From the IMG/VR virus record IMGVR_UViG_3300038701_001628, positions 1-45,088 of that record: DNA of 45,088 bases; one strand, written 5' to 3'. Made by a program: the position numbers and the translations under genes. The stretch comes from a virus. The notes under the pieces are model-generated. The model did not search any database and was not told the DNA's origin. It saw only the letters and a list, made by a program, of their open reading frames with translations. Position 1 is the first letter of the stretch. Each line of letters opens with the position of its first letter. Positions 10,950 through 42,908 of the stretch are shown piece after piece.

Positions 10950-13487
10950 GTGGCACAGACAATTCAACGCAGTTTCACCGGTGGTGAGATTGCACCAAGT
11001 CTAAGATCACGTGCCGACCTGGTGAAATATTCCAGCGGTCTAGCTTTGTGTGAGAACATGTTTGTTAGATCCCAGGGTGGTGTGTATAGTCGACCAGGGA
11101 CCAAGTTCATTGGTGAGATAGGTCAACCCAACAGGCGCGCTAGATTGATTCCCTTCAGTTTCAACACTGAACAAACTTACGTTTTAGTCTTTGAACACCT
11201 TACAATGAGAGTCATCAAAGATGGTGGCTTCGTTCTCAATGGTGCTGGTCCTTCACTTTATGAAATAGCAACCCCTTATACTGAGTCTGAATTATCACGG
11301 CTGAGCTTCACACAAGATGCCGACGTGATGACAATCGTTCATCCGAATTATGATCCACGCGATCTTAGTCGTACAGCCGATGATGAATGGTCGCTTGATG
11401 TTATTGATTTCGATCCACCCATATCACCCCCATCTTTCACTTCTGATAGTGTCGCAAACATAACCGCGATCACACAGGCATCCCAAGCTCAAGTGACTAC
11501 AAGTGGAGCACATGGTCTGAGTAATGATGACGTGGTATTCATCGAATCTGTAGGGGGTATGACGGAGCTTAACGATCGTGGATTCGAGATATTCGTTGAC
11601 TCAACTACTACGTTCATCTTGAAAGGGGAAGACTCGACAGGTCATACTGCGTATACATCCGGTGGTACTGCCACATCCGGTGGACTTGTTGCATACGGTA
11701 GTGGTGCGGGGGATTTTGATAAGACATATAGTTACGTGATAACAGCGGTTAGTGCAGACGGTGAGTCGATAGCGTCGTCTTCTAAGAGTATCACTACTCC
11801 TTCATTGTCAGTTACAGCCGGTGTTAGAATCTCATGGGACGCGGTGAACAACGCTTCTTATTATCGCGTCTACAAAGACCCATCGAATGGTACAGGTATT
11901 TACGGTTGGATTGGTGACTCTGAAACAACTCAGTTTGATGATTACAACATTGCACCAATAACATCAGACGCACCCCCTGAAGATCGCGCACCATTTGAAT
12001 CATCAACTGCATCAATAACAGCAGTGACTAAAGCCAACCCTGCTGTGGTTACTGCTACAACTCACGGGTTCAGTACTGGACAAAATGTCACAATGTCTAG
12101 CGTAGGTGGTATGACTGAGCTGAACGGTAACACTTATGTGATAACTGTCATTGATGCTGATAGCTTCAGTTTAAATAATACAGATTCATCAGCGTACACC
12201 ACGTACACTTCTGGCGGTACTGCCGCTCGCACTAATAATAAACCAGCGACAGTTGCTTACTACCAGCAACGACGTGTATTCGCGAATACAAACGAAGAAC
12301 CCCAAACAGTGTTTACAACCCAGACGGGTGTTTACGACTCGCTCAGATCATCCATACCAGCGCGCGCAGACGATGCCGTAACATTTACAATCAAAGGCCG
12401 ACAGGTCAACGAGATCCGTCACGCAGTCGACGTGGATGGTCTTGTTCTTCTAACTTCAGGTGCCGAATGGCGAGTGACCGAGGGGCAGGACCAAGTACTA
12501 ACCCCTTCAACAGTGGGTGCACGCATTCAGTCTTACTACGGTGCGTCTTGGGTGCCACCACAGATTATTGGTGACACTGTTATATTCGTACAGGAGAAAG
12601 GTTCACGAGTTCGTGATATCAAGTACGAATTTGTTGATGATAAGTATTCTGGTAATGACTTATCAATCATGTCTGAACACTTATTTGAAGGTTACGAAAT
12701 TGAAGAAGTAGCTTTCAGTCAAGAACCGTACAGCATTGTGTGGATGGTTCGTAATGATGGTAAAGTTCTTGCGATGACATATCAGCGTGAACACCAGGTT
12801 TGGGGGTGGCACCAACACGACTTCGGTGGTGTGGTTGAGTCAGTTACTTCAGTTAGCGAGGGTCAACGTGACGCGGTGTATATGGTCGTTAAAAGAACCA
12901 TAAACGGGTCTGATGTTCGATATGTGGAACGAATGGAACAACGATACACTTCGGCACCTGAAGATGTCTGGTGTGTTGACTCGGGTCTTCAATATGACGG
13001 GTCTGCTGCTACAGTTATTTCAGGATTGGATCATTTGGAGGGAGAAGCTGTATCAGTTGTTGCTGATGGTAATGAGGTTAAGAATCTTACTGTTAGCAGT
13101 GGTGCAATAACTCTACCAAGAGCCGCGAGTAAGGTGACAGTAGGGTTGGCATACACACCTGCTGTTGAATTGCTTGATATTGACTTGTCATCTGCTAATG
13201 AAACACTTAAAGGTAAAGAGGTATCAGTGTCTCGTGTTATACTGGAAGTTGAGAAGTCTCGTGGGGGTTGGGTTGGTCCTAAGAAAGACAATGGTAGCAC
13301 TGGTACAATGTTGGAAATTAAGCCAAGATTTGATACTGATAACTATGATTCAATCGCATTGAAGACATTCAAACAAGAACTTTATATTGATCCTCAGTGG
13401 AGTAAGGGTGGCGGTATCCGCATTGAGCAGCGTACACCCTTTCCACTGGCGATCTTATCAGTGATACCAGAAGTCGATGTCAGTTAA
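10950..13487 (+). CDS. tail nozzle / tubular protein B-like (phage stabilisation protein family)
   Basis: GTG start. QRSFTGGEIAPSLRSRADLVKYSSGLALCENMFVRSQGGVYSRPGT motif, 845 aa, gp12 position. Contains an internal duplicated about 70-aa module flanking an Fn3-like segment. Confidence 0.55.
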   Translation: MAQTIQRSFTGGEIAPSLRSRADLVKYSSGLALCENMFVRSQGGVYSRPGTKFIGEIGQPNRRARLIPFSFNTEQTYVLVFEHLTMRVIKDGGFVLNGAGPSLYEIATPYTESELSRLSFTQDADVMTIVHPNYDPRDLSRTADDEWSLDVIDFDPPISPPSFTSDSVANITAITQASQAQVTTSGAHGLSNDDVVFIESVGGMTELNDRGFEIFVDSTTTFILKGEDSTGHTAYTSGGTATSGGLVAYGSGAGDFDKTYSYVITAVSADGESIASSSKSITTPSLSVTAGVRISWDAVNNASYYRVYKDPSNGTGIYGWIGDSETTQFDDYNIAPITSDAPPEDRAPFESSTASITAVTKANPAVVTATTHGFSTGQNVTMSSVGGMTELNGNTYVITVIDADSFSLNNTDSSAYTTYTSGGTAARTNNKPATVAYYQQRRVFANTNEEPQTVFTTQTGVYDSLRSSIPARADDAVTFTIKGRQVNEIRHAVDVDGLVLLTSGAEWRVTEGQDQVLTPSTVGARIQSYYGASWVPPQIIGDTVIFVQEKGSRVRDIKYEFVDDKYSGNDLSIMSEHLFEGYEIEEVAFSQEPYSIVWMVRNDGKVLAMTYQREHQVWGWHQHDFGGVVESVTSVSEGQRDAVYMVVKRTINGSDVRYVERMEQRYTSAPEDVWCVDSGLQYDGSAATVISGLDHLEGEAVSVVADGNEVKNLTVSSGAITLPRAASKVTVGLAYTPAVELLDIDLSSANETLKGKEVSVSRVILEVEKSRGGWVGPKKDNGSTGTMLEIKPRFDTDNYDSIALKTFKQELYIDPQWSKGGGIRIEQRTPFPLAILSVIPEVDVS

Positions 13488-13944
13488 ATTCGAGAAGCCA
13501 ACAGAAGACTCATTGATACACATCGGTGAGTACATGCGAGAAGCTGATCGTATTGAAGTCATGGCTTCTCATGGGATGGTGCCATTAGAAGCTGTGTTCA
13601 ACTCTGTTGACATATCAGATTTATCATCTGTTGCACTGTATAATGGAGTACCTTGTGCTGTGTTTGGCCTGGTGAAACGAGACTTACTGACAGGAACCGG
13701 GGTGCCCTGGTTACTTGGTACCGATGACATAGATTTATGTAAGAAAGATTTTATTATTCACACTCGCGAAGGTGTGAGAGAAATGTTGAATGTGTGTCCA
13801 CGATTAGAGAATCATGTTCACATTGAAAACAGGAAAAGTATACGATGGTTGAAAACAATGGGATTTAAATTTGATGAACCCGAACCTGTAGGAATACATG
13901 GTGAATTGTTTTCACGATTTTATTTGGAGTTGAACAATGTGTAA
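13477..13944 (+). CDS. GNAT-fold / T7 gp13-position virion assembly protein
   Basis: ENHVHIENRKSIRWLKTMGFKF resembles the GNAT N..si.wl...GF motif. Called on gene order. Confidence 0.4.
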   Translation: MSVKFEKPTEDSLIHIGEYMREADRIEVMASHGMVPLEAVFNSVDISDLSSVALYNGVPCAVFGLVKRDLLTGTGVPWLLGTDDIDLCKKDFIIHTREGVREMLNVCPRLENHVHIENRKSIRWLKTMGFKFDEPEPVGIHGELFSRFYLELNNV

Positions 13945-14461
13945 TCCTGCTGTAATTCCTTATGTAATGGCCGCAGTTGCTGCTTATGGTTCATATGAGC
14001 AAGGTAGACAGGCTAAGAAGACTTCTCGCTATAATGCTCGCGTCATGGAGAATGAAGCCATTCGTACTCGCAACAAGGGTACCGACGAAGAAAATCGACA
14101 TCGTGAGAAGGTTCAACAATTAATATCCCAGCAACGGGCAACCCTTGGTGCGAGCGGTGTTGATATTGCGAGTGGTTCACCATTACAGGCACAAACTGAT
14201 GCCGAGTTGCTGGGTGAGGTTGATTCATTGCGCATCCGTCAGAATTATTCAGACTCTGCACGAGCAATTGATGAGAAAGCAAAACTCACCATCGCCGAGG
14301 GTAACAGTGCGTATCGCAAAGGGGTTATCGGCGCAGTGACTGCAATTGGTGGAGCTGTCGCGGGTAATGTATCGAATAGCTGGTACACACCACAAAGCTC
14401 CGCTGTAACAACTACAACAACTGGGGCGCAAGCAAATGCTGCCTTTGGTAATATTGCTTAA
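13937..14461 (+). CDS. internal virion protein (gp14-position)
   Basis: N-terminal hydrophobic segment AVIPYVMAAVAAYG, followed by coiled-coil. Called on gene order. Confidence 0.5.
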   Translation: MCNPAVIPYVMAAVAAYGSYEQGRQAKKTSRYNARVMENEAIRTRNKGTDEENRHREKVQQLISQQRATLGASGVDIASGSPLQAQTDAELLGEVDSLRIRQNYSDSARAIDEKAKLTIAEGNSAYRKGVIGAVTAIGGAVAGNVSNSWYTPQSSAVTTTTTGAQANAAFGNIA

Positions 14462-14469
14462 GGTGATTT

Positions 14470-16062
14470 ATGCCCAAGATACCAACATACGACGGATTAC
14501 AAGTTGATCAGCAAATAGCATCACAACCGTTGGCTCGTGTCGACCCTGATCCAATAAACAGTCGGGCGATCAATCAGCTTGGTAACGAAGTTCTCAAGAT
14601 GCAACAGCGCATTGCTGAGACTGAAGCTGAAGAAGCAATTACCTCGTTTGAGCGAGAGAAGAATAAAATCTTCTTCGATCCAGACAGTGGTTATTTTAAC
14701 GCTCAAGGTCGCGATGCTTACGACCGTGCCCCCGAGGTCAACAAGAACCTTGACGCACTGAAACGCCAGTACTCTGAAAACCTCAAATCAGACACAGCTC
14801 GTCGAGCGTTCGACAGGGTTGCCACTCAACACCTCACCCGTGCAAATCAAGATGTAATGCGTCACGCTAGTAAGAACCTTAAGGCTTGGGAAGCGAGCAC
14901 AATCAATGCTCAAGTTGAGAACACCATTGAGAATGCATCACTGTATTGGAATGATGAAAAGCGACTCGGCGTACAGCGTGAGCTTGGCAGACAGTCTGTT
15001 ATGGAGAGTGCCAATATTGAAGGGTTAAGTCCTGAAGCAACTGCCGAACGCCTACAAACCTATGAGTCTTCATTTGCTGCTGCTGCTGTCACTGCTGCTG
15101 TACAGCAGGGTTCACAGCAAGGTCAGGAGACTTTCGATCGTTACAAGGATCGTCTCGAAGGTCCAGATGTGATCAAGATGCAGTCAGCGATCGAGCGTAA
15201 AGCTAAAGCTGAGAAGACCCAACTTGACTCGAATACTGCAGTTCTCGCAGCCGGTAAGCTGGTGGAACAATATGGTGATGCTGACAATGCGCGGTCATCC
15301 ATCATTGAAGAAGTGAACAAGATCGAAGATCCTGAACTGCGACAAAAAGCAATGAAGGAATCCATGTACCAATTTGAAGCCAAAATGAAGGCTGACTCTG
15401 AAGAACGTGCTGCAACGTTTGAGGCCGGGGAGAACTTCATCGTAGAGGGTGGTTCAGTAGAGCAATTCATTGCTCAGAACCCAGAACAATGGGAGAAGTT
15501 GACTCCGAAACAGAAGCGAGTATTGAACTCAGGTGCTTCTGTAAGTACTGATTATATAAAATTATCAGACTTATTAACCCTGCCGAAAGACAAGTTGGCA
15601 CAGGTTAATCCCACGGATCACTTCGATCACTTGAACAAAGCTGATCGAAGTAAGCTGATCAATGCAGTTAAGTCTGCTCGCCAAGGTGGTGTCGATCACC
15701 AAGTTGGTAGAACTCGAACTGCCGAGACATCTTCAGCGGTTGAACAGTTATTTGGTAAAAAGACCAAATGGGACAAGAAGGAGAAGGCGCAAGTCAATGA
15801 GTTCTATGCTATAGTAGACGATGAGGTACAGTTCCGCGAGAAGCAGAAGGGGTCACCCTTGACTTCCCAGGAATATACTGAAATGTTAAACAGCATGACT
15901 CGCAAGGTTGTCAAAGACCGGACATTCTGGTTTGACAAAGAGCAAGACATCACTGATATCCCCGCCGAAGATCTGGGTGTGATCAGTGATTACCTGCATC
16001 AAAATAGCATACCTGCGACTGCTGAGAATATCCTAAAAGCATACGAACAGGCTTCTCAATGA
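14470..16062 (+). CDS. internal virion/core protein (gp15-position)
   Basis: 530-aa helical protein with a 4-nt overlap with the giant downstream gene. Confidence 0.5.
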   Translation: MPKIPTYDGLQVDQQIASQPLARVDPDPINSRAINQLGNEVLKMQQRIAETEAEEAITSFEREKNKIFFDPDSGYFNAQGRDAYDRAPEVNKNLDALKRQYSENLKSDTARRAFDRVATQHLTRANQDVMRHASKNLKAWEASTINAQVENTIENASLYWNDEKRLGVQRELGRQSVMESANIEGLSPEATAERLQTYESSFAAAAVTAAVQQGSQQGQETFDRYKDRLEGPDVIKMQSAIERKAKAEKTQLDSNTAVLAAGKLVEQYGDADNARSSIIEEVNKIEDPELRQKAMKESMYQFEAKMKADSEERAATFEAGENFIVEGGSVEQFIAQNPEQWEKLTPKQKRVLNSGASVSTDYIKLSDLLTLPKDKLAQVNPTDHFDHLNKADRSKLINAVKSARQGGVDHQVGRTRTAETSSAVEQLFGKKTKWDKKEKAQVNEFYAIVDDEVQFREKQKGSPLTSQEYTEMLNSMTRKVVKDRTFWFDKEQDITDIPAEDLGVISDYLHQNSIPATAENILKAYEQASQ

Positions 16063-19000
16063 CCACACTGAATTTAGATAATATTGATCTTGGTGCATTC
16101 GGACCAACTGATGAGAATGAAAAAACTGTAGACCAAGTTGTTGATCAACAACGACAGCAACAACTTGGTGCCACATTGGGTGAAGCTATCAAGGTTAACC
16201 CAGATCAACAAGCCAAGATCAACAAGTTATCTAAAGAATCAGGTGTACCACCTGCTGCTGTAGAGTCTGACCCCACGTCCATTGAGACAAATCTTAAGTT
16301 AAAGAAGATCGACCTCAAGTCAATGACTCGCACCAACCCTGCTGTCAGTAAATTCTTGAACGACTTTGATCGTGCATCTGTGTCTCATGATGATATTGAT
16401 TCATTGAAGGCTTTAGAAGACGCGGTTGCCACTCTGCATCTACCCTCAAAACAGCAAGTTGCTGATAATTCTGAAGACAAGAATGGTTATCTGTCCAATG
16501 TAGGCCGAGGTGTCGGCGAGCGTGTGACCGAGCTGCTTGGGTCATTATATGGGTTTGCTGCCCAGGGTGGTGAGTACCTTGACGAAAAGTTCCCCGTAGG
16601 TGGGTTTGTATTTGAAGACTCACTACTTCCGAGATATGCCGGACCTGAAGAATGGAAGCAGTTGCAAGAAAAAGGAATGGACGACCTTGTTGCTCGGACT
16701 GGTAAGATCCTCAAAGACACCAACTTTGGTTATATACCTCAAGCCACATGGGAGACTACCAAGGAAGCCTACGCATCTGGCGACGTACTTGATGCTGCAG
16801 GTGAGACTTTAGCATTCGGGTTCGAACAAGGCACTCACTCACTTGCTGATATGGCTGCTACCATTTATGCACTTCCAACTTACATTTTGGCCAGGTCACA
16901 AGAGATAGGCGAAAATCGTGCCAAGAATAAAGGTTTAGAAAAAGCAACAATCGAAGAGACGATCGAAGCCGCACCGTTCGCTGTGGGTTCCGCGATATTG
17001 GAACGCATATTGCCTGCTAAAGTTTTTGGTGGTATGAGTAAGAAAGAAGTCAGTCAGGTTGGTAAGGAAGTCCTTAGCCAGTCTGCTAATAAATTGAAAG
17101 AGGTCATGAAGGCCGCTGGTAGTGGTCTGATCATTGAATCCACCACCGAGGCGATCCAAGAGGGTCTGATTGAGTACATCGGTGAGCGTTATGGTACTGA
17201 TGCGCCAATCTTTCTAAGAGAAGCGTTGGATCGTGCTGCAGGGGGTGCTGTCGGTGGCGGTGTAGCTGGTGGTATGTTGAGTGGTACTTCAGCAACAATC
17301 AATGTTGTAGTTAACACACAGACCTCTCAGAAGATGGATGCTGCTGCGCAGGAAGCCCAGCGTCAGGCGATTCAGGCTGACCAAGAGCAACGCACCATCG
17401 ATAACCTTAACGACCTGGCACAAGGCTCAAAGCTGCGTGAGCGTGACCCCGAGTCATTCAAGCAGTTTGTAGAACAGAGCGACGGTGAGAATAACACTCA
17501 CGTATTTATCGACGGTGTGCAAGCTAAACTTTATCTAGCCGACAAAGATGTACAGTCGGACCCAGTGCTACAGATGATCGCTGAGAAAGTAAACGAAGCC
17601 GCCAGTCTGGGCAACGAGGTCGCCATACCTGTTGCAGATTTTGCGACAACTGTAGCAGGTACTCCGCACTTTGAAGCACTTCGTGAGTTCATGACATTAA
17701 GCGGTAAAACCACTGCTCCATTTAGACAAGAACAAGCACAACAAGAAACCCGCGAGTACGTTTCGAAACTGATGGATGACGCCAAAGAGAATGTGTCTCA
17801 GTACGTTGAGTCACAGGAGATCTTTGAATCTGTTCGTCAACAGCTCGTTGATACCGGGATGGTCAATGCTCAAAATGCAGGAGTGATGGCTCAAGTCGTA
17901 CCCGCATGGGCAACAGTGTACGCACAGAAGAATGGTATCTCTGTGCAAGAAGCGTACCAGAAATCAGGTTTAGTTATTGAAGGACCACAAACTGGTCGAG
18001 CTGCAGCACTGCAGGCTGAAGAAGTTACACCCCCAGTAATTCCAGAAGAACAGATTCAAGAGCGTATCGTCACACGTGAGCCTGTCACAGATCGTCGGCA
18101 ATCAGACACAAGTAACGACGTTTCGGAACAGCGCCAGGGTGATCGTCGTTCGGATGACGCGCGTCGTGAGCGCATTGCGAACATGACTCCTGAAGAACAA
18201 TACAAGGCGATCTACACCAATGAATTGACTGGTTTAAACAATCGCCGCGCATTCGAGGAAGATTTACCAAACTCACCCGTTGTAGTTAGCATCGACGTTG
18301 ACTCACTCAAAACAGTGAACGACAACTTAGGTCATGATTCAGGCGATCAGTTACTCAAGGTCGCTGGTAAAGCGATCTACGAAGCCACAGGCGGTAAGGC
18401 TTATCACATCAGTGGCGATGAATTCTATGTACTTGGTGACAATCAAGCTGAGATAGAAAGCAACTTAGAAGCTGCTCGACAAGCATTAAGCAACTCTGTT
18501 GTTGCTTCTGAACGCGGTGCACTAACTGGTGTTGATTTCACTTACGGTGCTGCAGATAACAAAGCCGATGCAGACCATGCGATGGAGCAGGCTAAGGGTG
18601 ATCGTGAGGCGCGTGGTGAGCGAGTACCACGTGGTGAGTTGCCGCGAGGTATGGTGTTGAATGAGAAATTGAATCAAGTTGCTAACGAGAGTGTTGAAGA
18701 ATTCAGTAACAGAATTGCAAAAGAACAAGGTCTTGAGGATTTTTTCTTAATAGAGAAACGCAACGGTGACATTGAGCTTGCTAATTTTGTAGTACCAAAA
18801 ACCGATCAAAAGTCAGGTAAAGGTACTGCTACAATGCAGGCTCTGATTCAATTCGCCGACCTTAACAATAAGCGAATTGTTCTTGATCCTGCATTGAAAG
18901 ATGACAGAAAAGGAACAACAAGTAGAGGTCGTTTAGTTAAATTCTATAAACGATTTGGATTTGTCGAGAATAAGGGTCGCAATAAAGACTTTGAAATCAG

Positions 19001-22000
19001 TGGGTCAATGTATCGTGAAGCGTCAGAGACTTTTGCTCAATCGGTTGATCAGACTCAGACTGAAGCATTTAGGAAGTGGTCTGAAGGTGGTGAAGTTGTT
19101 GAAGATTATGATGTTAACGATTATGAGTTCAAACAAGACACACCGGTTGTGTTGAAAGTCTACCACGGGACTACTCACAAGTTCAGCGTATTTGAAGCAC
19201 TTCGTGGAAATCTTGAAGGCCAGTTTGGAGCTGTAAATTACTTCACAAGTAGCGAGTATGATGCTGAACAAAACCACGCTGGTGAAGGTCCAGATCTAAC
19301 TAATCGGATTGACCGTCGTGCAGAACAGTTGACAGATGATATTCAAGAGATTATTGATGAATCAGGATTAGACGCGGCAATTGAACAATTTATACCAGGT
19401 GTAGATCAATTCATAGAAGATGCTTCTGACATTGCGCAAGTTCTTGCAAAGAAAGAATTGTCAGGTGGTGAAGAACTCACGATGGAGTTGTTCGTCAAAG
19501 TTAAAAACCCGTTTGTAATCGGTGAGAATGCTGAGTGGTTAGAATTTGTCGACAATGACTCAATTCGATCACAAGCTGAAGAGAAAGTTGCTGAAGATAA
19601 TGATGTGGACGTTGATGAGGTTGTCAATAACTTTGAAGAATATGAAGACCAAATCTATGATGCGATTTATGAAATTGAAGCCGAAACCCCAAATCAACTG
19701 ATTGAAGCAATTCAGGAAATATCTGATCGTCACGGAATTGATCCTAGTAATCTGCTCGCTCAAGTTTATGAATTAGGTTCAGAAGCAAAACCTGAAGTCA
19801 TTGAAGACCTGCTACGAACAAGTGAAGATTACCAATATGTAGAAGGTGATCAAGGTGAGTTAATTGGTTCACAGTTGATAGCTGAAGTAATTGAAGAGAT
19901 GGGGTTTGATTCAATCATTCTTCGAAATGCTGAAGACCGATTCAGTGCAATGGACATCCCTCAATCAACTGCACATGTTCATATTTTTGACAGCGGTAAA
20001 ACTAATATCAAAGCTGTTAATAATCAGGGTACTTTTGATCCTGAGAATCCAGACATCTATAAACAAAAAGAACGCGGATACTACGAACCAAGCCGCTCGT
20101 TAATCCGTCTTACTGAGTCTGCGGATCTTAGTACATTCCTTCATGAGTTTGCTCACTTCATGTATGAAATGGAGTTGAACTCTACTGACTCCCTTGATGG
20201 TAAGAACACTGTTGCAAGTATTCACAAGTGGTTTAAGCGTAACTCTAAAGATGTTGCGAAAGAAGCTAATTCTTACTTGGGTAGATCGGGTGCATTAGAG
20301 CAACCTGCTTTCCACGGCACTGCGCATCAGTTTGACAAGTTCAGTCTCGAAGCTATCAACACTGGTGAAGGTAACCAAACTTACGGGTGGGGGTTGTACT
20401 TCGCAAGTAAAAAATCAATTGCTGATTTTTACAAAGACAAGTTCCAAGGTCGCACTGTAGAAGTTGAAGTTCCTGAAAATAGTGAACTCTTAGACTATAA
20501 CGCACCGTTGTCATCTCAACCTGGGATGATGGAAAAACTCAACATCAAAGAAAAGTCTGTTTACCTTGACACCGAGCTGACTCCATCAATGTCAGGTCAG
20601 GAAGTTTATGACCGTCTTGCACGCGGTAGAACGAATCGCGGTGTTAACACCAAACAAGAAGCTTCGGAATATTTGTCATCACTCGGTATACCCGGTCTAA
20701 AATATCGTGACGCAAGTTCTGAAGGTGACAACTTTGTCATCTGGGATGAAGATCGTGTAAGTATCACTGACATTAATGAACAAGAACATCAAGCAGAAAG
20801 ACTCAATCAAGAAGGCGATCCAGACTTCCGTGAACCTCCGAAAGAAATAACTGAAGAAGATATTCTCGTATACCTCGATGTTGGTACCACAAACTTCGCT
20901 GACAAAGATGCTGCTATTCGTCGTGCTACTCATGAGCAGTTTGCTCGCGGATTTGAAACGTACTTAATGGAAGGTAAAGCACCTTCTGCTGAACTGCGTA
21001 ATATTTTCCGCACGTTCGCACGATGGTTAACTCAGATCTACAAATCAGTACGCGGTAATTTACGGGTGAACCTCGACGAAGAAATGCGTGAAGTTTTCAA
21101 TCGTCTACTTGCAACTGAAGAACAGATTGCAGCCGCTGAAGCTCGTGCCAAGTATGCACCAATGTTTAGTAATGCTGCGATGGCGGGAATGACTGAGGAA
21201 GAGTTCAGCAAATACACCGAGCAGCAAGAAAAAACCAAAGACAAAGAAACCGAAACACTACGTGACAAGTTGATTGGTGAAATCACTCGTCAAACTAAAT
21301 CATGGTGGAAGGAAGAGAAACAAGATCTTATTGATGAACAGCTTGACGTTCTCAGTGTTGAGCCTGTTTACCGTGCGACTGAGGGTCTGCGCAACGGTGA
21401 GTTCAAACTTGATCACGCCACTGTGAAAGAGATGGTCGGATTCGAGCGAACTGATAAGCGCGGTATGACTTCAACTCGTGTTCCAGATCAACTACGCGGT
21501 ATGACTGTCAAAGGTGCTAAGGGTGTTCACCCTGATGAAGCCGCTGCATTCTTTGGTTTCAATTCAGGTAGCGAGATGTTGTCTGAAATTATTGATGCTG
21601 TACCCGTCGGTGACAAAGCTGCTGCACAAGCTGAAGAGATTATGCTTGAGCGTCATGGTGACATCATGCACGATGGTACTATTGAGCAGCAAGCCGACGA
21701 AGCATTGCAGAATGAAGAACGCGGTAAGTTGATCCTTCAGGAACTTAAATCACTTCGCAAGGGTACCAATGCGCCAGCGTTAGATCGTGCCACCATCAAA
21801 GCAATGACTGAAGAGAACATTGCTAAACTGAATTACCGTTCCATATTCCCTCAGAAGTACCGTAAAGCTGAGATTCGTGCAGCCCAAGAAGCCGCTGCTG
21901 CATTAGCGAAAGGTGACAAAGAAGCTGCAGCAATGGCGAAGGCTCGTCAAGTTCTAAACTACTATTTGGGAATGGCTGCTACTGATGCACGCAATGACAC

Positions 22001-24443
22001 CTTGAAGATTGTTGATCGTATGTCTCGATACAACAAGAAGAAGGTGCGCGAAGAAATTCAAAAAGCTGAGAATGGTTACTGGGAGCAACTTGTAAAAATT
22101 CTCAACCGGTTCGAATTCCGCAAGTCTGCCACACTGAAACAAGTCGACGAGGTTAACGAAGATATCAACTCGTGGATGAAGGCTCGCATGGATGATGATG
22201 GTGACGCATTGGTGCTATCTCCTGCAGTTCTCAATGAGACATTTGTCACCCATTGGAAAAATGTTCCATACTCTGATCTTCAGGGTATCAATGACTCTGT
22301 GAAGAACATCGAACACGTTGCGCGGTACTCTAACAAACTAACCCGCATGGGTGAAGAGATTGAATTTCGCAAGTTGGTTGACCGGTGGGTTAACCACATG
22401 GAAGAAGCTCAGCCTTCACGTTTCCAGCCACAACGCACCAGTGTAGTCGAGGGTCGCAACTGGGGTCGTTGGGCAATGGCTCAGATGACCAAGATTCCAT
22501 ACATGGCATCGTGGCTTGACGGGGGTGAGCGTGTCGGATTGAGTCATGACATCCTCATCCAACCTATGACCGACGCTGCTGACGCTGAGATCCAGCTATG
22601 GAAGTCAGTAGGCAGTAAGGTCATGGAAGCCATAGAAGGGCGTGACAAGGCTGACATTAAGCGTCACAACCGTAAGATCTTCATCCCTGAGCTAAAGGAC
22701 GCCACTAATGACGGTAACCTCATGGGTCACCAGGTTCTTGCTGTTGCATTGAACACTGGTAACCAGGGCAACTTGCGCAAGATGTTGCTCGGTGAAGGTT
22801 GGGCTAACCCCGAGAACGATGCCGAGATCACTCTGCAAAATCCCAAACTGCAAGCTGTGCTGAAGAACATGACCAAATCTGACTGGGAACTGGTGCAGTT
22901 AATCTGGGATCAGATGGAAGAGTTATACCCGCAGTTAGCAGAAGTACATCGTCGCACTACTGGTTTAGTGCCACCGAAGGTTGACGCAACCCCCGTGCAG
23001 ACTGAGTTCGGCACATTCAAGGGTGGTTACTACCCGGTGAAATATGACTCTAACCGCAGCCATCAGGCTGAGATGAATGAGGATAAGTTGAATGCGCAGA
23101 CTGAGTCGATGTTCAGTACGATCGGGAGTATCCAGGCGTCGGTTAATGCATCAGCTACGAACGAAAGAACCAAGTACTATGCACCGATCAGACTCAGTCT
23201 GGACGTGGTGCCAGGACACTTCCAAGAAACCATTCATTACATCACACACCATGACGCAGTGCGAGAAGTCAACAAGCTGATTCGTAACAAGTCTGTGGCT
23301 GAGACAATTAAAGCAAAACTCGGACCAGAAGAGTACGCTCAACTTAAACCTTGGTTGAACGATCTAGCCAAAGATGGTAAAGAAGCACCTACCAAGATGT
23401 TCTGGGATGACATGCTGGGTCGTCTACGTTTTGGTCTGACACTTGGTACTATGGGTTTCCGTGTCACCACGGGTCTTATCCAGATATCTGGTCTATCGAA
23501 CACTGTGGCTGAAGTCGGCGCTAAGCCTGTGTTACAGGCTGCTCGCAGCATCCTCGGTAGTACAACCAACATGAGGGAAGCTTGGGACTTTGCTAACTCT
23601 AATTCCAAGGTGTTGAACCACAGAACGCAGACTATGGACCGTGAGATCAAGAACGCCATGAATCGCATTGCTGGGAAGCGTGGTATGTTGGCAGCAGTCC
23701 AAGAGGCGTCAATGAAGCACATTGCATATATCCAGACCTACATGGTGGATCTGCCAAGCTGGTACGCTGCGTACATCAAGAAGCTTGATGAAACGGGAGA
23801 TGAGCAAAAAGCGTACCAATATGCTGATTGGGTCGTGGAAAATGTTCAGGGTTCAGGGATGACGAAAGACATGGCACGGATAATGCGTGGTCAGTCAGAA
23901 AGTGGTAGAATGTTCACTATGTTCATGACTTTCTTCAGTTCGTTGTGGAATATGGAACGAGATCTTGTGAAAGGTGCCAGATCCAAGCGTTATTCTATTA
24001 CAACCACTGCAGCTAAGTTGGCATTCTTATTCAGTATCCCAGTTCTATTTGAGATGTTGATGAGAGGTGAGGTTGACGACGATGAGCCAGAAGAGACAAT
24101 GCAGAAGATACTGACCAAGACAGCGACATTCCCTGTACAGTCGGTACCATTCATAAGAGACATTGTCAATGGTGCTACGGGAGAATTCGGTTATAATATA
24201 TCACCGATCGCATCATTGCTTGAAACCGGTACCAGGTCAATACCTGCTCTAGTTGCCGCCCCGTTGACTGACGATGAGATAACTAAGTCTCAAGTCAAAG
24301 GTGCGACCAAGGTTGGTGGGGCTGCACTCGGCATCCCTGGTATCAATCAAGCCTGGGCCACTGGTGAGCATTTGTACGAAGTAATTGAAGATGGTGAAGA
24401 TTTCACTACACAAGAATTCTTGTTTGGTCCAAAGAGAGATTAA
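16059..24443 (+). CDS. giant internal virion / ejection protein (gp16-position), polyvalent multi-enzyme protein
   Basis: Uninterrupted 2794-aa ORF between a gp15-like gene and the tailspike. The C-terminal region has hydrophobic segments (LAFLFSIPVLFEMLM). The central region holds GGDEF, GNAT, ART-like and HExxH motifs (listed separately). Confidence 0.85.
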   Translation: MTTLNLDNIDLGAFGPTDENEKTVDQVVDQQRQQQLGATLGEAIKVNPDQQAKINKLSKESGVPPAAVESDPTSIETNLKLKKIDLKSMTRTNPAVSKFLNDFDRASVSHDDIDSLKALEDAVATLHLPSKQQVADNSEDKNGYLSNVGRGVGERVTELLGSLYGFAAQGGEYLDEKFPVGGFVFEDSLLPRYAGPEEWKQLQEKGMDDLVARTGKILKDTNFGYIPQATWETTKEAYASGDVLDAAGETLAFGFEQGTHSLADMAATIYALPTYILARSQEIGENRAKNKGLEKATIEETIEAAPFAVGSAILERILPAKVFGGMSKKEVSQVGKEVLSQSANKLKEVMKAAGSGLIIESTTEAIQEGLIEYIGERYGTDAPIFLREALDRAAGGAVGGGVAGGMLSGTSATINVVVNTQTSQKMDAAAQEAQRQAIQADQEQRTIDNLNDLAQGSKLRERDPESFKQFVEQSDGENNTHVFIDGVQAKLYLADKDVQSDPVLQMIAEKVNEAASLGNEVAIPVADFATTVAGTPHFEALREFMTLSGKTTAPFRQEQAQQETREYVSKLMDDAKENVSQYVESQEIFESVRQQLVDTGMVNAQNAGVMAQVVPAWATVYAQKNGISVQEAYQKSGLVIEGPQTGRAAALQAEEVTPPVIPEEQIQERIVTREPVTDRRQSDTSNDVSEQRQGDRRSDDARRERIANMTPEEQYKAIYTNELTGLNNRRAFEEDLPNSPVVVSIDVDSLKTVNDNLGHDSGDQLLKVAGKAIYEATGGKAYHISGDEFYVLGDNQAEIESNLEAARQALSNSVVASERGALTGVDFTYGAADNKADADHAMEQAKGDREARGERVPRGELPRGMVLNEKLNQVANESVEEFSNRIAKEQGLEDFFLIEKRNGDIELANFVVPKTDQKSGKGTATMQALIQFADLNNKRIVLDPALKDDRKGTTSRGRLVKFYKRFGFVENKGRNKDFEISGSMYREASETFAQSVDQTQTEAFRKWSEGGEVVEDYDVNDYEFKQDTPVVLKVYHGTTHKFSVFEALRGNLEGQFGAVNYFTSSEYDAEQNHAGEGPDLTNRIDRRAEQLTDDIQEIIDESGLDAAIEQFIPGVDQFIEDASDIAQVLAKKELSGGEELTMELFVKVKNPFVIGENAEWLEFVDNDSIRSQAEEKVAEDNDVDVDEVVNNFEEYEDQIYDAIYEIEAETPNQLIEAIQEISDRHGIDPSNLLAQVYELGSEAKPEVIEDLLRTSEDYQYVEGDQGELIGSQLIAEVIEEMGFDSIILRNAEDRFSAMDIPQSTAHVHIFDSGKTNIKAVNNQGTFDPENPDIYKQKERGYYEPSRSLIRLTESADLSTFLHEFAHFMYEMELNSTDSLDGKNTVASIHKWFKRNSKDVAKEANSYLGRSGALEQPAFHGTAHQFDKFSLEAINTGEGNQTYGWGLYFASKKSIADFYKDKFQGRTVEVEVPENSELLDYNAPLSSQPGMMEKLNIKEKSVYLDTELTPSMSGQEVYDRLARGRTNRGVNTKQEASEYLSSLGIPGLKYRDASSEGDNFVIWDEDRVSITDINEQEHQAERLNQEGDPDFREPPKEITEEDILVYLDVGTTNFADKDAAIRRATHEQFARGFETYLMEGKAPSAELRNIFRTFARWLTQIYKSVRGNLRVNLDEEMREVFNRLLATEEQIAAAEARAKYAPMFSNAAMAGMTEEEFSKYTEQQEKTKDKETETLRDKLIGEITRQTKSWWKEEKQDLIDEQLDVLSVEPVYRATEGLRNGEFKLDHATVKEMVGFERTDKRGMTSTRVPDQLRGMTVKGAKGVHPDEAAAFFGFNSGSEMLSEIIDAVPVGDKAAAQAEEIMLERHGDIMHDGTIEQQADEALQNEERGKLILQELKSLRKGTNAPALDRATIKAMTEENIAKLNYRSIFPQKYRKAEIRAAQEAAAALAKGDKEAAAMAKARQVLNYYLGMAATDARNDTLKIVDRMSRYNKKKVREEIQKAENGYWEQLVKILNRFEFRKSATLKQVDEVNEDINSWMKARMDDDGDALVLSPAVLNETFVTHWKNVPYSDLQGINDSVKNIEHVARYSNKLTRMGEEIEFRKLVDRWVNHMEEAQPSRFQPQRTSVVEGRNWGRWAMAQMTKIPYMASWLDGGERVGLSHDILIQPMTDAADAEIQLWKSVGSKVMEAIEGRDKADIKRHNRKIFIPELKDATNDGNLMGHQVLAVALNTGNQGNLRKMLLGEGWANPENDAEITLQNPKLQAVLKNMTKSDWELVQLIWDQMEELYPQLAEVHRRTTGLVPPKVDATPVQTEFGTFKGGYYPVKYDSNRSHQAEMNEDKLNAQTESMFSTIGSIQASVNASATNERTKYYAPIRLSLDVVPGHFQETIHYITHHDAVREVNKLIRNKSVAETIKAKLGPEEYAQLKPWLNDLAKDGKEAPTKMFWDDMLGRLRFGLTLGTMGFRVTTGLIQISGLSNTVAEVGAKPVLQAARSILGSTTNMREAWDFANSNSKVLNHRTQTMDREIKNAMNRIAGKRGMLAAVQEASMKHIAYIQTYMVDLPSWYAAYIKKLDETGDEQKAYQYADWVVENVQGSGMTKDMARIMRGQSESGRMFTMFMTFFSSLWNMERDLVKGARSKRYSITTTAAKLAFLFSIPVLFEMLMRGEVDDDEPEETMQKILTKTATFPVQSVPFIRDIVNGATGEFGYNISPIASLLETGTRSIPALVAAPLTDDEITKSQVKGATKVGGAALGIPGINQAWATGEHLYEVIEDGEDFTTQEFLFGPKRD
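18201..18608 (+). other. GGDEF (diguanylate-cyclase fold) domain, aa 715-850 of the giant protein
   Basis: ELTGLNNRRAFEEDL...VVVSIDVDSLKTVNDNLGHDSGDQLLK...YHISGDEFYVLG...ADHAMEQAKGDRE. Signature SGDEF at 18411-18425. Confidence 0.75.
18741..18977 (+). other. GNAT N-acetyltransferase-like domain, aa about 895-973
   Basis: Motif A Q-x-x-G-x-G in DQKSGKGTATMQALIQFA, followed by RLVKFYKRFGFVENKG. Confidence 0.55.
19146..20026 (+). other. ART-PolyVal-like module 1
   Basis: VYHGTTHKFSVFE...GAVNYFTSSEYDA...VKVKNPFVIGE...MGFDSIILRN...AHVHIFDSGKTNIKAV fits the remembered HGT / YFT / NP / G.D.I / vF...IK pattern of polyvalent-protein ADP-ribosyltransferase domains. Confidence 0.45.
20142..20156 (+). 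other. HExxH zincin metallopeptidase motif (HEFAH)
   Basis: STFLHEFAHFMYEMEL, aa 1362-1366. Confidence 0.5.
20310..20783 (+). other. ART-PolyVal-like module 2
   Basis: FHGTAHQFDKFS...YGWGLYFASKKSIADFY...LGIPGLKYRD...GDNFVIWDEDRVSITDI. Paralogous to module 1. Confidence 0.45.
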
Positions 24444-26791: not shown

Positions 26792-27013
26792 ATGAATATA
26801 ATTAAGCTGTTTTTTGAAGAATACAAGGGTGCGCGAAGATTTTCACTTTTTTGGGCGATAACCCTGATTACTTATGTTGTAGTTAACGTCATTCAACCTG
26901 AAAACTTAAGTAACATCAATGCGGCAAGTGCCACAGTTGTTACTTCTATACTTGGAATACTTGCCACAGTTATAGGTTTTTACCAATGGCACAGGTCACA
27001 AGATGATTCGTAA
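26792..27013 (+). CDS. holin (two TM segments)
   Basis: The internal ATG at 26792 follows the tailspike stop. MNIIKLFF... has hydrophobic FSLFWAITLITYVVVNVI and ATVVTSILGILATVIGFY and a charged C-terminus. Immediately upstream of the spanins. Confidence 0.6.
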   Translation: MNIIKLFFEEYKGARRFSLFWAITLITYVVVNVIQPENLSNINAASATVVTSILGILATVIGFYQWHRSQDDS

Positions 27014-27500
27014 ATATTTAATTATAAGTGTGGCAGTCATCTCTGCTATTTCTGGGGCTTATTTTACCAAATTATATTGGTCTAATAAGTATAATTCTCT
27101 AATTGTGAAATTAGAGAAAGCAGAAAAAGAAAACATGCAACACATTCTAAGTGTTGAAAGATTACAACGTGATAAAGCAGACGCAATTGCTTCTAAATTG
27201 GCAGCGGAAGAGTCAGCTCGCCAAGCTAAATCAAAAGTAATTACAAAAGAAGTGGTGAAATATGTTGAAAGTAATTCTAATTCTAAGTGTGAACTTGATG
27301 ATGATTGGGTGCACATCAGTGACTCCGCAACTCCAGTGCCCCGAGTTACCGAAACCTCCAGCGAAACTGATGGAACCTCCAATAAAATTCGAGACCTTGG
27401 GGACGCACTCGAAGTAGTGACTAACAATTATTCTGCATGCCAGGACGCGGTGGATCGTTTACAAGCATGGCAGCAATGGTATAAATCTATATCGGAGTAG
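27003..27500 (+). CDS. Rz: i-spanin (Rz-like)
   Basis: N-terminal TM KYLIISVAVISAISGAYF, then a coiled-coil periplasmic domain. Contains an embedded lipoprotein ORF in another frame. Confidence 0.75.
   Translation: MIRKYLIISVAVISAISGAYFTKLYWSNKYNSLIVKLEKAEKENMQHILSVERLQRDKADAIASKLAAEESARQAKSKVITKEVVKYVESNSNSKCELDDDWVHISDSATPVPRVTETSSETDGTSNKIRDLGDALEVVTNNYSACQDAVDRLQAWQQWYKSISE
27262..27417 (+). CDS. Rz1: o-spanin (Rz1-like), embedded out of frame within Rz
   Basis: My translation is MLKVILILSVNLMMIGCTSVTPQLQCPELPKPPAKLMEPPIKFETLGTHSK, with lipobox MIGC and a proline-rich 51 aa. Below the ORF-track size cut-off. Confidence 0.75.
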   Translation: MLKVILILSVNLMMIGCTSVTPQLQCPELPKPPAKLMEPPIKFETLGTHSK

Positions 27501-27505
27501 AAGTG

Positions 27506-27814
27506 ATGTCCGAGGATCGACTTAATCAACTAGAAGTCAAGCTGGATACCCACATGAGAGACTGTGATAAACGTCTCAACAGGATAGATGATAGGGCTGA
27601 AAAACTCATCCAATCCCAAGAGAGATGTACAGAAGCTTTGGAAAAATTAACAAATGACACCAGTGGTGTTGTTGAATTATACAATAATGCACAAGGTGCT
27701 GTTACAATCGGCATCGGTGTGCAAAAGTTTGGATTGTGGGTTCTCAAATGGCCACTGATTGGTGCCGGGTTATATGCGGCATTTGACTGGATTATTAAAC
27801 ATTTACCTAACTAA
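27506..27814 (+). CDS. coiled-coil protein with C-terminal membrane segments (possible second holin/lysis regulator)
   Basis: MSEDRLNQLEVKLD... then GAVTIGIGVQKFGLWVLKWPLIGAGLYAAFDWII. Confidence 0.5.
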   Translation: MSEDRLNQLEVKLDTHMRDCDKRLNRIDDRAEKLIQSQERCTEALEKLTNDTSGVVELYNNAQGAVTIGIGVQKFGLWVLKWPLIGAGLYAAFDWIIKHLPN

Positions 27815-27826
27815 GAGGATACGAAA

Positions 27827-28141
27827 ATGGGCACAAGATCTGCATTAGCCCCAATTAAAGATGGGAATATTCATACACTTGTGGACCTGGCTAACCACCC
27901 CACGACGGTTTACACGGGTCAGGGTGTGCTTATTGGTGTTATATGTCACACAACCACCAGTGCTCATCTCATTGAAGTTAAGGATGGGAGTGACGTTATA
28001 GCGAGATTGGCTGTGTCACTGAACATTGGCGACACTATTGACCTGTTTGAAATGGAATTCACTGAGAGCATTGTAATTGACGGGAACGCCGCAGCCACAG
28101 GAACCATTACTTTAATATATCAACCCTATCCTAATTCTTAA
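27827..28141 (+). CDS. hypothetical protein
   Basis: 104-aa ORF with GAGGA upstream. Last gene of the rightward operon. Confidence 0.55.
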   Translation: MGTRSALAPIKDGNIHTLVDLANHPTTVYTGQGVLIGVICHTTTSAHLIEVKDGSDVIARLAVSLNIGDTIDLFEMEFTESIVIDGNAAATGTITLIYQPYPNS

Positions 28142-42270: not shown

Positions 42271-42471
42271 TTAGGAGACATGGGTTTGATTACCTCGCTT
42301 GTGATTATATTCAGCAGTGTAAAGCTCGCAGTTTGTGTGCTCTACTGCTGATGTTTCTGAGTTACTGAAGTAACCACTTGAGTTTGTCCAGTAACGATGA
42401 CCTTTAGGAATTACTCCATTACAGCAATTACAGATTCGGTCTTCAGTTGCGACTTCTAATTTAATGCTCAT
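42271..42471 (-). CDS. hypothetical Cys-rich protein
   Basis: 66 aa, ICNCCNGVIPKGHRYW...HTNC. ATGA overlap with the upstream lysozyme gene. Confidence 0.5.
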   Translation of the reverse strand: MSIKLEVATEDRICNCCNGVIPKGHRYWTNSSGYFSNSETSAVEHTNCELYTAEYNHKRGNQTHVS

Positions 42472-42908
42472 GAGTTACTCCAAGCAGATAGTGCGTTATG
42501 GTAGTCATCTGGTTTAGCCTTACCACCTTCTGTGTTATAGAATTCCTTGAGATACTTGGACAACTCGGGTCTCGTGGTGGGTATTGGGTTGGGGTCTGTT
42601 AGAAGCATTGAGCGTGCCATGAATATGTTATACTTCAGATCCCACTCCAACGCTTTCACATTCTTAACAATACCACAGCGTGCAGCATTGTACCTAATCC
42701 TGTCTGCGTGCATCCACAGGCTCTCGTGAGTCGCTGGTTCCATTTGAATCACACCGAGTGCTGGCCCCTTAACTTGCTTGATGTAGGTGCCGCAGGATGA
42801 CTCATGAGCAACGATCATCATAATGGCTTCATGCGCTGGGAGTGACCAAGCTGACATTTCATCAAGGACTCGTCCTGTGAGATCTTTAAACTGTTCGTAA
42901 TTTAACAT
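42468..42908 (-). CDS. lytic transglycosylase (SLT-type), probable endolysin
   Basis: VAHESSCGTYIKQVKGPALGVIQMEP carries the catalytic ES and G.A.G.MQ-type motifs of family-1 transglycosylases. No signal or SAR sequence. Confidence 0.7.
   Translation of the reverse strand: MLNYEQFKDLTGRVLDEMSAWSLPAHEAIMMIVAHESSCGTYIKQVKGPALGVIQMEPATHESLWMHADRIRYNAARCGIVKNVKALEWDLKYNIFMARSMLLTDPNPIPTTRPELSKYLKEFYNTEGGKAKPDDYHNALSAWSNS

Follow-up and report, generated by a model that had tools for sequence, protein, structure and literature searches.

Why would a gene of a phage structural operon encode several unrelated enzyme domains, and where would these enzymes act? The question is raised by a viral DNA of 45,088 nucleotides (IMG/VR record IMGVR_UViG_3300038701_001628, analysed at its full length and called the window below), in which a single unbroken open reading frame (ORF) of 2794 codons occupies the position where T7-like phages encode the internal virion protein gp16. 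An initial annotation of this DNA had read the product as an ejection protein bearing at least four enzyme-like modules. We find that the phage is probably a podophage of the BPP-1/epsilon15 type that infects marine gammaproteobacteria and the product its large internal virion (ejection) protein, in which a conserved chassis is joined to enzyme cargo that would be injected and act in the cytoplasm. This reading is built on observations of the architecture of the protein, its homologies, the mobility of its cassettes and the constraint on its sequence.

More than 120 relatives were compared by pairwise mapping against the giant protein. In 141 phage records, among them those of Vibrio phages, Pseudomonas phage AF, Xanthomonas phage CP2, Bordetella phage BPP-1 (protein Bbp10), Caulobacter phages and cyanophages, tblastn detected its C-terminal ~1200 residues. 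The gene itself had no megablast match among 50,697 phage records, and relatives were detected at the protein level only. The nearest of these are the Vibrio phages MZH0603, 1.021.A/B/C, PS25B.1 and 1.185.O, which have the same gene order and shorter counterparts of the protein (1902 amino acids (aa) in MZH0603, 2057 aa in 1.021.A, and a further one of 2514 aa). The mapping identifies three conserved pieces, aa 1-656, aa 1339-1407 and aa 1595-2794, which together form the chassis and are contiguous in MZH0603, 1.021.A and dozens of metagenomic relatives (designated by P numbers).

Between the chassis pieces lie two hotspots whose content changes from relative to relative. Hotspot 1 (aa 656-1339) holds a GGDEF domain, a GNAT domain and an ADP-ribosyltransferase (ART) domain, ART1, in the giant protein. 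The same site contains GGDEF alone in P0091 (from a contig of 47 kb whose genes are in the same order), P0133 and P0001, a GNAT in P0092-94, a GNAT plus ART1 block that is 60% identical in P0136, GGDEF plus ART in P0217, and GGDEF plus GNAT plus ~1000 residues of no known identity in P0216; in other relatives it is empty. Hotspot 2 lies inside a module with an HExxH motif, between the HExxH helix and a downstream helix with the sequence HEQFARGFE. A second ART-like domain, ART2, which is absent from most relatives, occupies it here, different ART-PolyVal modules occupy it in P0099 and P0104 (Pfam E 3e-20), and unrelated inserts are found in P0105, P0122, P0129 and P0147. In relatives the first half of the HExxH module directly abuts the equivalent of aa 1595 onward.

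Two further observations concern insertion sites. In P0037 (aa ~1000-1200) the N-terminal H-G-T motif of an ART2-type module runs straight into an HExxH module (HETGH), as if a past insertion or deletion at hotspot 2 had left a trace there. A third hotspot is present in the helical core at aa ~1780-1825 (window ~21400-21530), where 1.185.O, P0136 and P0148 carry ~165 extra residues (at the equivalents of aa 1779/1824 and 1782/1825) and the giant protein carries no insert.

Base composition also separates part of the cargo from the chassis. GC content is 0.38 in the GNAT and 0.39 in the ART1 segment versus 0.47 in the chassis, and GC at third codon positions is 0.28-0.30 in these two segments (0.275 in ART1) versus 0.41-0.47, suggesting that the GNAT plus ART1 block (18654-20072) was acquired horizontally and recently. 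The GGDEF segment has the composition of the chassis. Relative to P0091, nonsynonymous divergence (dN) is 0.20 for GGDEF, 0.21 for the core, 0.19-0.22 for the HExxH module and 0.55 for the N-terminal region; the ratio of dN to synonymous divergence (dS) of the core is about 0.06, and because synonymous sites are saturated in this pair, dN alone is comparable between segments.

Table 1. Features of the window and their coordinates; aa positions are those of the giant protein, and GA denotes the Pfam gathering threshold.
Feature	Position	Strand	Details
Portal, T7-type	5793		Pfam Head-tail_con 503 bits
Capsid protein	8385		
Tubular tail B (nozzle), 845 aa	10950-13487		
gp13-like	13477-13944	+	Pfam Phage_T7_Gp13; phrog_308 'internal virion protein', E 5e-36
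gp14-like	13937-14461	+	Pfam T7_gp14 36 bits; phrog_418 'internal virion protein', E 2e-28
530-aa gene, gp15 position	14470-16062	+	directly upstream of giant gene
Giant gene	16059..24443	+	2794-aa polyvalent internal virion (IVP-D position) protein; ORF, ATGA overlap, synteny
N-terminal chassis	16059..18026	+	aa 1-656, includes LPD22; aligns with MZH0603 aa 1-615 and most relatives
LPD22	16188-16430	+	aa 44-124; Pfam 54.5 bits versus GA 28.6
Cassette 1, GGDEF	18168..18653	+	aa 704-865; Pfam match aa 722-846
Cassette 2, compact RimI-like GNAT	18654..19058	+	aa 866-1000; domain aa ~880-990
Cassette 3, ART-PolyVal module 1 (ART1)	19059..20072	+	aa 1001-1338; domain aa ~1030-1335
HExxH module, first half (chassis)	20073..20279	+	aa 1339-1407; HEFAH at 1362-1366
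Cassette 4, ART-PolyVal-like module 2 (ART2)	20280..20840	+	aa 1408-1594; Pfam match aa 1418-1469
HExxH module, second half (chassis)	20841..21098	+	aa 1595-1680; HEQFARGFE helix
Helical core (chassis)	21099..24440	+	aa 1681-2794, ~1100 aa, alpha-helical
Beta-helix tailspike	24463		downstream of giant gene

The initial annotation assigned the product to the polyvalent proteins, and the domain matches bear this out. GGDEF and ART-PolyVal score above their Pfam gathering thresholds, GNAT is recognised at the profile level, and all are part of one 2794-aa protein of the structural operon. LPD22, also above threshold, and ART-PolyVal are accessory or hub domains of polyvalent proteins, and both are Pfam families derived from Iyer et al. 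2017 (J Bacteriol; PMC5512222), the only paper returned by a literature search for 'LPD22'. The module order proposed at the outset (GGDEF, GNAT, ART, HExxH, ART) stands, with unequal support: in the per-domain Pfam comparison GGDEF and ART1 are above threshold, GNAT and ART2 fall below it, and the HExxH module, known by its motif, has no match.

The GNAT segment itself scores 18.2 bits against a gathering threshold of 27. Its homologous segments match Pfam GNAT families in 26 of 30 cases (Acetyltransf_7, best E 6.5e-9), and a profile of the family finds the RimI structure 9mto (E 2.9e-4). The acetyl-CoA motif (Q/R-x-x-G-x-G/A) is represented by Q917-K-S-G920-K-G922, with both glycines invariant in alignment A2, and the module also carries the motif 'FYKRFGFVENKG'. 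These features fit the RimI-like clade of Iyer et al. 2017 (PMC5512222), who noted that this GNAT family typically neighbours ART in the polyvalent proteins of gammaproteobacterial phages.

ART1 matches ART-PolyVal with 36.7 bits (threshold 31.2), and alignment with homologs yields a candidate triad of H1036, Y1061 and D1284, the last in a conserved GFD motif, whose residues may be assigned to specific strands. It also holds an acidic insert of ~190 aa, of which 27% are Asp or Glu. ART2 scores 28 bits (E 4e-6), below the same threshold, and its match covers only positions 10-58 of the 140-position profile. The module retains H1419 and Y1447, its acidic residue is uncertain (GIPGLKYRD), and a conserved Y-x-D (D1551) lies downstream. 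It belongs to a distinct subfamily, all of whose motifs (GEG..YG.G.Y.A, LD..PLS.Q and GIPG..Y.D; alignment A5) it contains. A profile search of the ART2 subfamily against PDB sequences returned nothing useful, and in an AlphaFold 2 (AF2) model of aa 1320-1720 the ART2 insert has a predicted local distance difference test score (pLDDT) of 25-50.

The HExxH module had been read initially as a zincin and as a piece of cargo. Alignments A1 and A4 (25 and 20 sequences) show no variation at H1362, E1363, H1366, H1625, E1626 or E1633, and both the HExxH motif and the downstream Glu motif lie in confident AlphaFold helices (pLDDT 75-97), with the second half of the module predicted as a long helix of pLDDT about 90. 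The fold is unconfirmed, however, and the module is a chassis part found in every relative, with ART2 inserted inside it. Within Pfam, none of 25 members matches a peptidase family better than E~0.01 (M3, M32, DUF6782), and there is no match to MPTase-PolyVal; a profile of the module found no match among PDB sequences. AF2 gave a good model for residues 40-150 of the insert-less module of P0091. Foldseek comparisons, proposed in the initial annotation, yielded nothing significant for the HExxH/ART2 region: neither the model with the insert nor the insert-less one had a PDB match below E = 2, the PDB hits of the aa 1320-1720 model were noise, and a BFVD search with the insert-less model retrieved the family itself only. 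One model has two short strands and the other none. A zincin fold is therefore not claimed; because the fold searches are negative and the residues invariant, we take the module to be a probable metal site, its fold being unproven.

Comparison by hhalign gave a weak in-register match between the HExxH region and the C-terminal domain of gp50, the virion RNA polymerase (vRNAP) of phage N4 (E 0.002, probability 14%), aligning 'RGYY..IRLTE..LSTFLHEFAHF' with 'GNIYGW..KTIYLVSPS.METLIHELVHA' of N4. Subdomain C2 of the N4 protein could not be aligned to the core.

An invariant set of His and Glu residues could mean that the module is an autoprotease, which would release individual effectors from the polyprotein, within the capsid or once inside the cell, so that the chain would never act whole. 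The invariance of all six residues in 25/25 aligned relatives, the location of the module at the junction of cargo and core, and the same role proposed for the metallopeptidases (MPTases) of polyvalent proteins by Iyer et al. 2017 (PMC5512222) are consistent with this. However, neither fold nor profile searches point to a zincin, relatives that lack cargo retain the module, and N4 vRNAP, which has an equivalent HExxH subdomain, is packaged unprocessed (per Iyer et al. 2017, PMC5512222). We regard such processing as a possibility, though a doubtful one.

The GGDEF domain is the best-defined of the cassettes. It matches PF00990 with 54.8 bits (threshold 23.8) and about 40 solved diguanylate cyclases in the PDB, including DosC, WspR and PleD. 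It retains the metal-binding D746 as well as D748, K751, the guanine-contacting N754 and D763, D787-E788 and K846, and its signature reads H783-I-S785-G-D787-E788-F789 in place of R-x-G-G-D-E-F. An RxxD inhibitory I-site is absent, as judged from the clade alignment. An exhaustive search of 1.84 billion representatives with this domain returned 1231 proteins at E<=1e-10, of which 61 reach E<=1e-30. From the 145 newly returned best-scoring representatives (P0211-P0355) we describe an HxSGDEF clade, which thus has at least 145 members. The signature HxSGDE[FY] is present in about 115 of the 145, and the metal, guanine and phosphate residues are kept throughout the clade (at least 145 representatives). 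Together with the low divergence noted above, these features suggest that the domain is probably a constrained, catalytic module of a distinct clade.

Members of this clade are long, exceeding 1400 aa in 112 of the 145 representatives (median 2239 aa, maximum 5484 aa). The clade is almost confined to giant proteins, most of which share no other module with the protein described here. The search excludes the notion that GGDEF is rare in giant proteins. Nor is the protein the largest or the unique GGDEF-bearing member of the IVP-D family, given the larger relatives P0212 (3105 aa) and P0216 (3367 aa). A tandem GGDEF pair is present in eight of the 150 best-scoring representatives, and such copies would provide in cis the dimer that a cyclase needs.

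We propose, tentatively, that the HxSGDEF domain is an active cyclase that travels in the virion and enters the cell with the DNA, where it would increase cyclic di-GMP (c-di-GMP), or another cyclic nucleotide related to it, around the site of entry ahead of any gene expression. Possible purposes of an injected cyclase include reprogramming of the host surface or motility, exclusion of competitors, and blunting or decoying of nucleotide-based immunity.

The variant signature raises a further alternative, namely that the domain is not a c-di-GMP synthase, and instead makes another cyclic di- or oligonucleotide, for interference with or decoying of immunity, or binds nucleotides only. The clade-wide co-substitution of R-x-G by H-x-S beside the catalytic DE(F/Y), seen in about 115 of 145 representatives, and the loss of the I-site would be in keeping with an altered product, and there are host systems, such as Panoptes (PMC12657218), in which GGDEF-like polymerases produce cyclic nucleotides that serve as decoys. 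However, the counterparts of the guanine-specifying Asn and Asp (N754 and D763) and the metal-binding residues are canonical. Moreover, SGDEF and AGDEF variants have been reported to be active diguanylate cyclases. For these reasons we consider a different product, or none, unlikely.

The core matches phrog_9880 (E 4e-293) and 320 proteins at E<=1e-10, contains one strongly hydrophobic segment in its hydropathy profile (aa 2650-2668), and is homologous to Bbp10 of BPP-1 (2052 aa; E 4e-97). Hardies et al. 2016 (Virology; PMC4819975) listed Bbp10 as a homolog of IVP-D (gp16) through chains of comparisons between hidden Markov models (HMM-HMM) with podophage-only libraries, and described IVP-D homologs as hosts of 'domains destined for the cytoplasm'. 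As first noted, the gene occupies the gp16 position, being preceded by gp13-, gp14- and gp15-like genes and followed by that of the tailspike, and it does so in the relatives as well. In CP2-like phage PhiXacm4-11 the same position is taken by the homologous gp35, a proposed core protein of 2300 aa whose AlphaFold 3 model has no PDB similarity according to its authors. At the other end of the giant protein, aa 143-584 (16485-17810) match the start of phrog_15406 ('DNA methyltransferase', 2789 positions; E 1.5e-32), which ties the N-terminal chassis to the methylase-bearing giant virion proteins of the H66/F116 type discussed by Hardies et al. 2016 (PMC4819975).

From these features we infer packaging, translocation, enzyme activity, targets and delivery before transcription. 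A few copies of the protein would lie above the portal in the filled capsid, alongside the gp14-like protein and the protein of the gp15 position, and be expelled through the tail at infection, where the core may help to build the inner-membrane end of the conduit. The cargo would then refold in the cytoplasm and act before phage transcription, the cytoplasm being its expected site because this is the sole compartment that supplies GTP, acetyl-CoA and NAD+. There, GGDEF might pair with that of another copy and form c-di-GMP or a close relative, GNAT might acetylate host proteins and the ART or ARTs might ADP-ribosylate them, and the HExxH module could either clip the cargo free or serve merely as a structural or regulatory joint.

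Enzymes encoded in a late structural operon could also act where they are made. The modules might function late in the producer cell or in assembly, by modifying components of phage or host ahead of lysis or by superinfection exclusion, their packaging being incidental. The operon setting and the coupling of the gene to that at the gp15 position would make the protein abundant late in the cytoplasm; in addition, GGDEF might act while the element resides in its host, and P1 DdrB is processed before packaging (both from Iyer et al. 2017, PMC5512222). However, the cassettes are always embedded between chassis parts of the IVP-D type, where a free-standing late gene would be simpler, and the experimentally supported precedents, N4 vRNAP (PMC13434306) and T4 Alt (cited in Iyer et al. 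2017), act after injection. Action confined to the producer cell therefore appears quite improbable. Finally, that the central modules are decayed relics or inert filler, such as a molecular ruler or ballast for capsid pressure, is very improbable: although the family can do without cargo, which MZH0603 and many other relatives lack, although GNAT and ART2 stay below the curated thresholds and although AF2 gives no confident ART2 fold, the catalytic motifs are intact and remain conserved even between deeply diverged sequences, the constraint on GGDEF equals that on the essential core, and numerous unrelated giant proteins contain these modules too.

Several results weigh against delivery of active cargo by a gp16-like protein. 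Alignment A3 of the core, compared with T7 gp16 by hhalign, has a probability of 0.07% and thus no detectable similarity, and the core profile has no match among PDB sequences; the link to gp16 is accordingly positional, and transitive through the published HMM-HMM work on Bbp10. The GGDEF signature is the variant H-x-SGDEF and not R-x-GGDEF. ART2 matches the N-terminal third of the ART-PolyVal profile only, and its residue in the column of the ART1-type Asp is Pro. The HExxH module has no zincin match by Pfam, PDB profile or Foldseek, and its model is all-helical. Also, 2794 residues with five folded modules would need to pass through a podophage tail, a question that N4 raises equally. Despite these points, injection of the cargo by an IVP-D-type chassis is in our judgement the probable explanation.

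The order adaptor, nozzle, gp13-, gp14- and gp15-like genes, giant gene and tailspike, put forward in the initial annotation, is confirmed by Pfam and PHROGs matches and is the same in relatives. In the sequence ATGA (16059-16062) the giant gene begins before the 530-aa gene has ended, its ATG overlapping the TGA of the latter, which suggests that the two are translationally coupled, and this junction is just as tight in related Vibrio phages, where both coding sequences share one base. The 530-aa protein matches PHROGs named 'endolysin' (700-900 positions long) at positions 1-276 alone, and therefore apparently lacks the muralytic part of its homologs. Neither this protein nor the giant one contains a recognisable cell-wall hydrolase; for the latter, Pfam and PHROGs searches found no muralytic domain (SLT, lysozyme), in agreement with the early remark that it has no transglycosylase. 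The tubular tail B protein has two matches to the FCCH domain of ubiquitin-activating enzyme E1 (Pfam PF16190, 87 bits), an annotation also given in GenBank entries of related Vibrio phages.

A lysis cassette after the tailspike (27003-28141) comprises spanin-like and holin/hemolysin-like genes, with no lysozyme recognised there. The remainder of the window encodes, on the opposite strand, an SNF2 helicase, a DNA polymerase, a primase and a PD-(D/E)XK-type protein; no match to an RNA polymerase was found among the window ORFs scanned. The T7-likeness initially attributed to the phage is therefore confined to the structural module. A 146-aa ORF (42468-42908, minus strand), initially taken for an SLT enzyme, has a 'HESS...GPALGVIQM' motif reminiscent of lytic transglycosylases, has no Pfam match and falls in PHROG 3108, to which no function is assigned, and its identity as an SLT enzyme is not confirmed. 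A PADLOC scan gave no match.

The concept of such a protein is not new. Polyvalent proteins, including those with a cyclase, have already been described and are common in metagenomes. The suggestion that a nucleotide cyclase had not been described in this setting fails in particular, as Iyer et al. 2017 (PMC5512222) devote a section to GGDEF in polyvalent proteins and report an Acetonema prophage protein (WP_004096050.1) that combines GGDEF with SNF2, methyltransferase (MTase), MPTase and ART domains. The exact set of GGDEF, GNAT, ART and an ART embedded in the HExxH module was found in no other protein recovered; since the family is built by combinatorial shuffling, a unique set does not define a new kind. 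In the literature searched we found no description of the map of two hotspots on a chassis with cassettes, with whole ART domains inside the HExxH module, or of the HxSGDEF clade with its extent and signature. No paper was retrieved for 'internal virion protein' combined with 'GGDEF', and no test of a virion-borne GGDEF was found.

Should the proposed mechanism hold, this protein would be a clear natural example of a chassis with plug-in cargo among phage ejection proteins, and the unit of HExxH module and helical core that bears an RNA polymerase in N4 would here bear a second-messenger synthase and protein-modifying enzymes. If the GGDEF is indeed an injected cyclase, it would be the first virion-delivered second-messenger synthase, and a function would be assigned to a large uncharacterised GGDEF clade in giant proteins of mobile elements. 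The family would also offer a convenient comparative system for asking what a phage must do to its host cell within seconds of infecting it, how enzymes that are large and folded make their way through a podophage tail, and whether host signalling or immunity is manipulated by nucleotide cyclases that arrive by injection.

Among known systems, the polyvalent proteins of phages and conjugative elements (Iyer et al. 2017, PMC5512222) resemble the giant protein in being giant single chains with several unrelated enzymatic domains, LPD22 and ART-PolyVal, in having a RimI-like GNAT adjoining ART, and, in Acetonema WP_004096050.1, in combining GGDEF with MPTase and ART. They differ in that the chassis here is a defined ejection protein of the IVP-D type rather than a generic 'large protein', and in that its HExxH module lacks a match to MPTase-PolyVal. 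T4 Alt, as summarised in Iyer et al. 2017 (PMC5512222), is an ART that is packaged in the head, injected with the DNA and modifies host proteins before phage gene expression. It is a stand-alone ART of the R-S-E type in a myovirus head, whereas the ART domains here are of the H-Y-D ART-PolyVal type (Tox-ART-HYD2 clade) and are fused into an ejection protein.

The IVP-D family (Hardies et al. 2016, PMC4819975), with Bbp10, epsilon15 gp17 and H66 gp60, shares the homology of the core to Bbp10 and the match of the N-terminal region to the PHROG of H66-like methylase-bearing giants (phrog_15406). The protein described here differs in having neither detectable similarity to T7 gp16 itself nor a lytic transglycosylase domain, and its cargo consists of signalling and protein-modifying enzymes instead of a methylase or an RNA polymerase. 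A parallel in layout is N4 vRNAP, about four copies of which per virion are delivered to the cytoplasm, and whose gp50 C-terminal domain, in a structure paper of 2026 (PMC13434306), consists of an HExxH subdomain (C1) and a helical subdomain of ~110 kDa with no structural homologs (C2). Sequence similarity between the two proteins is marginal (probability 14%), and both place enzymatic cargo N-terminal to an HExxH subdomain that is followed by an all-helical domain, here the HExxH module and the core. The RNA polymerase that N4 carries on this arrangement is essential, whereas the cargo of the giant protein is accessory and differs between close relatives.

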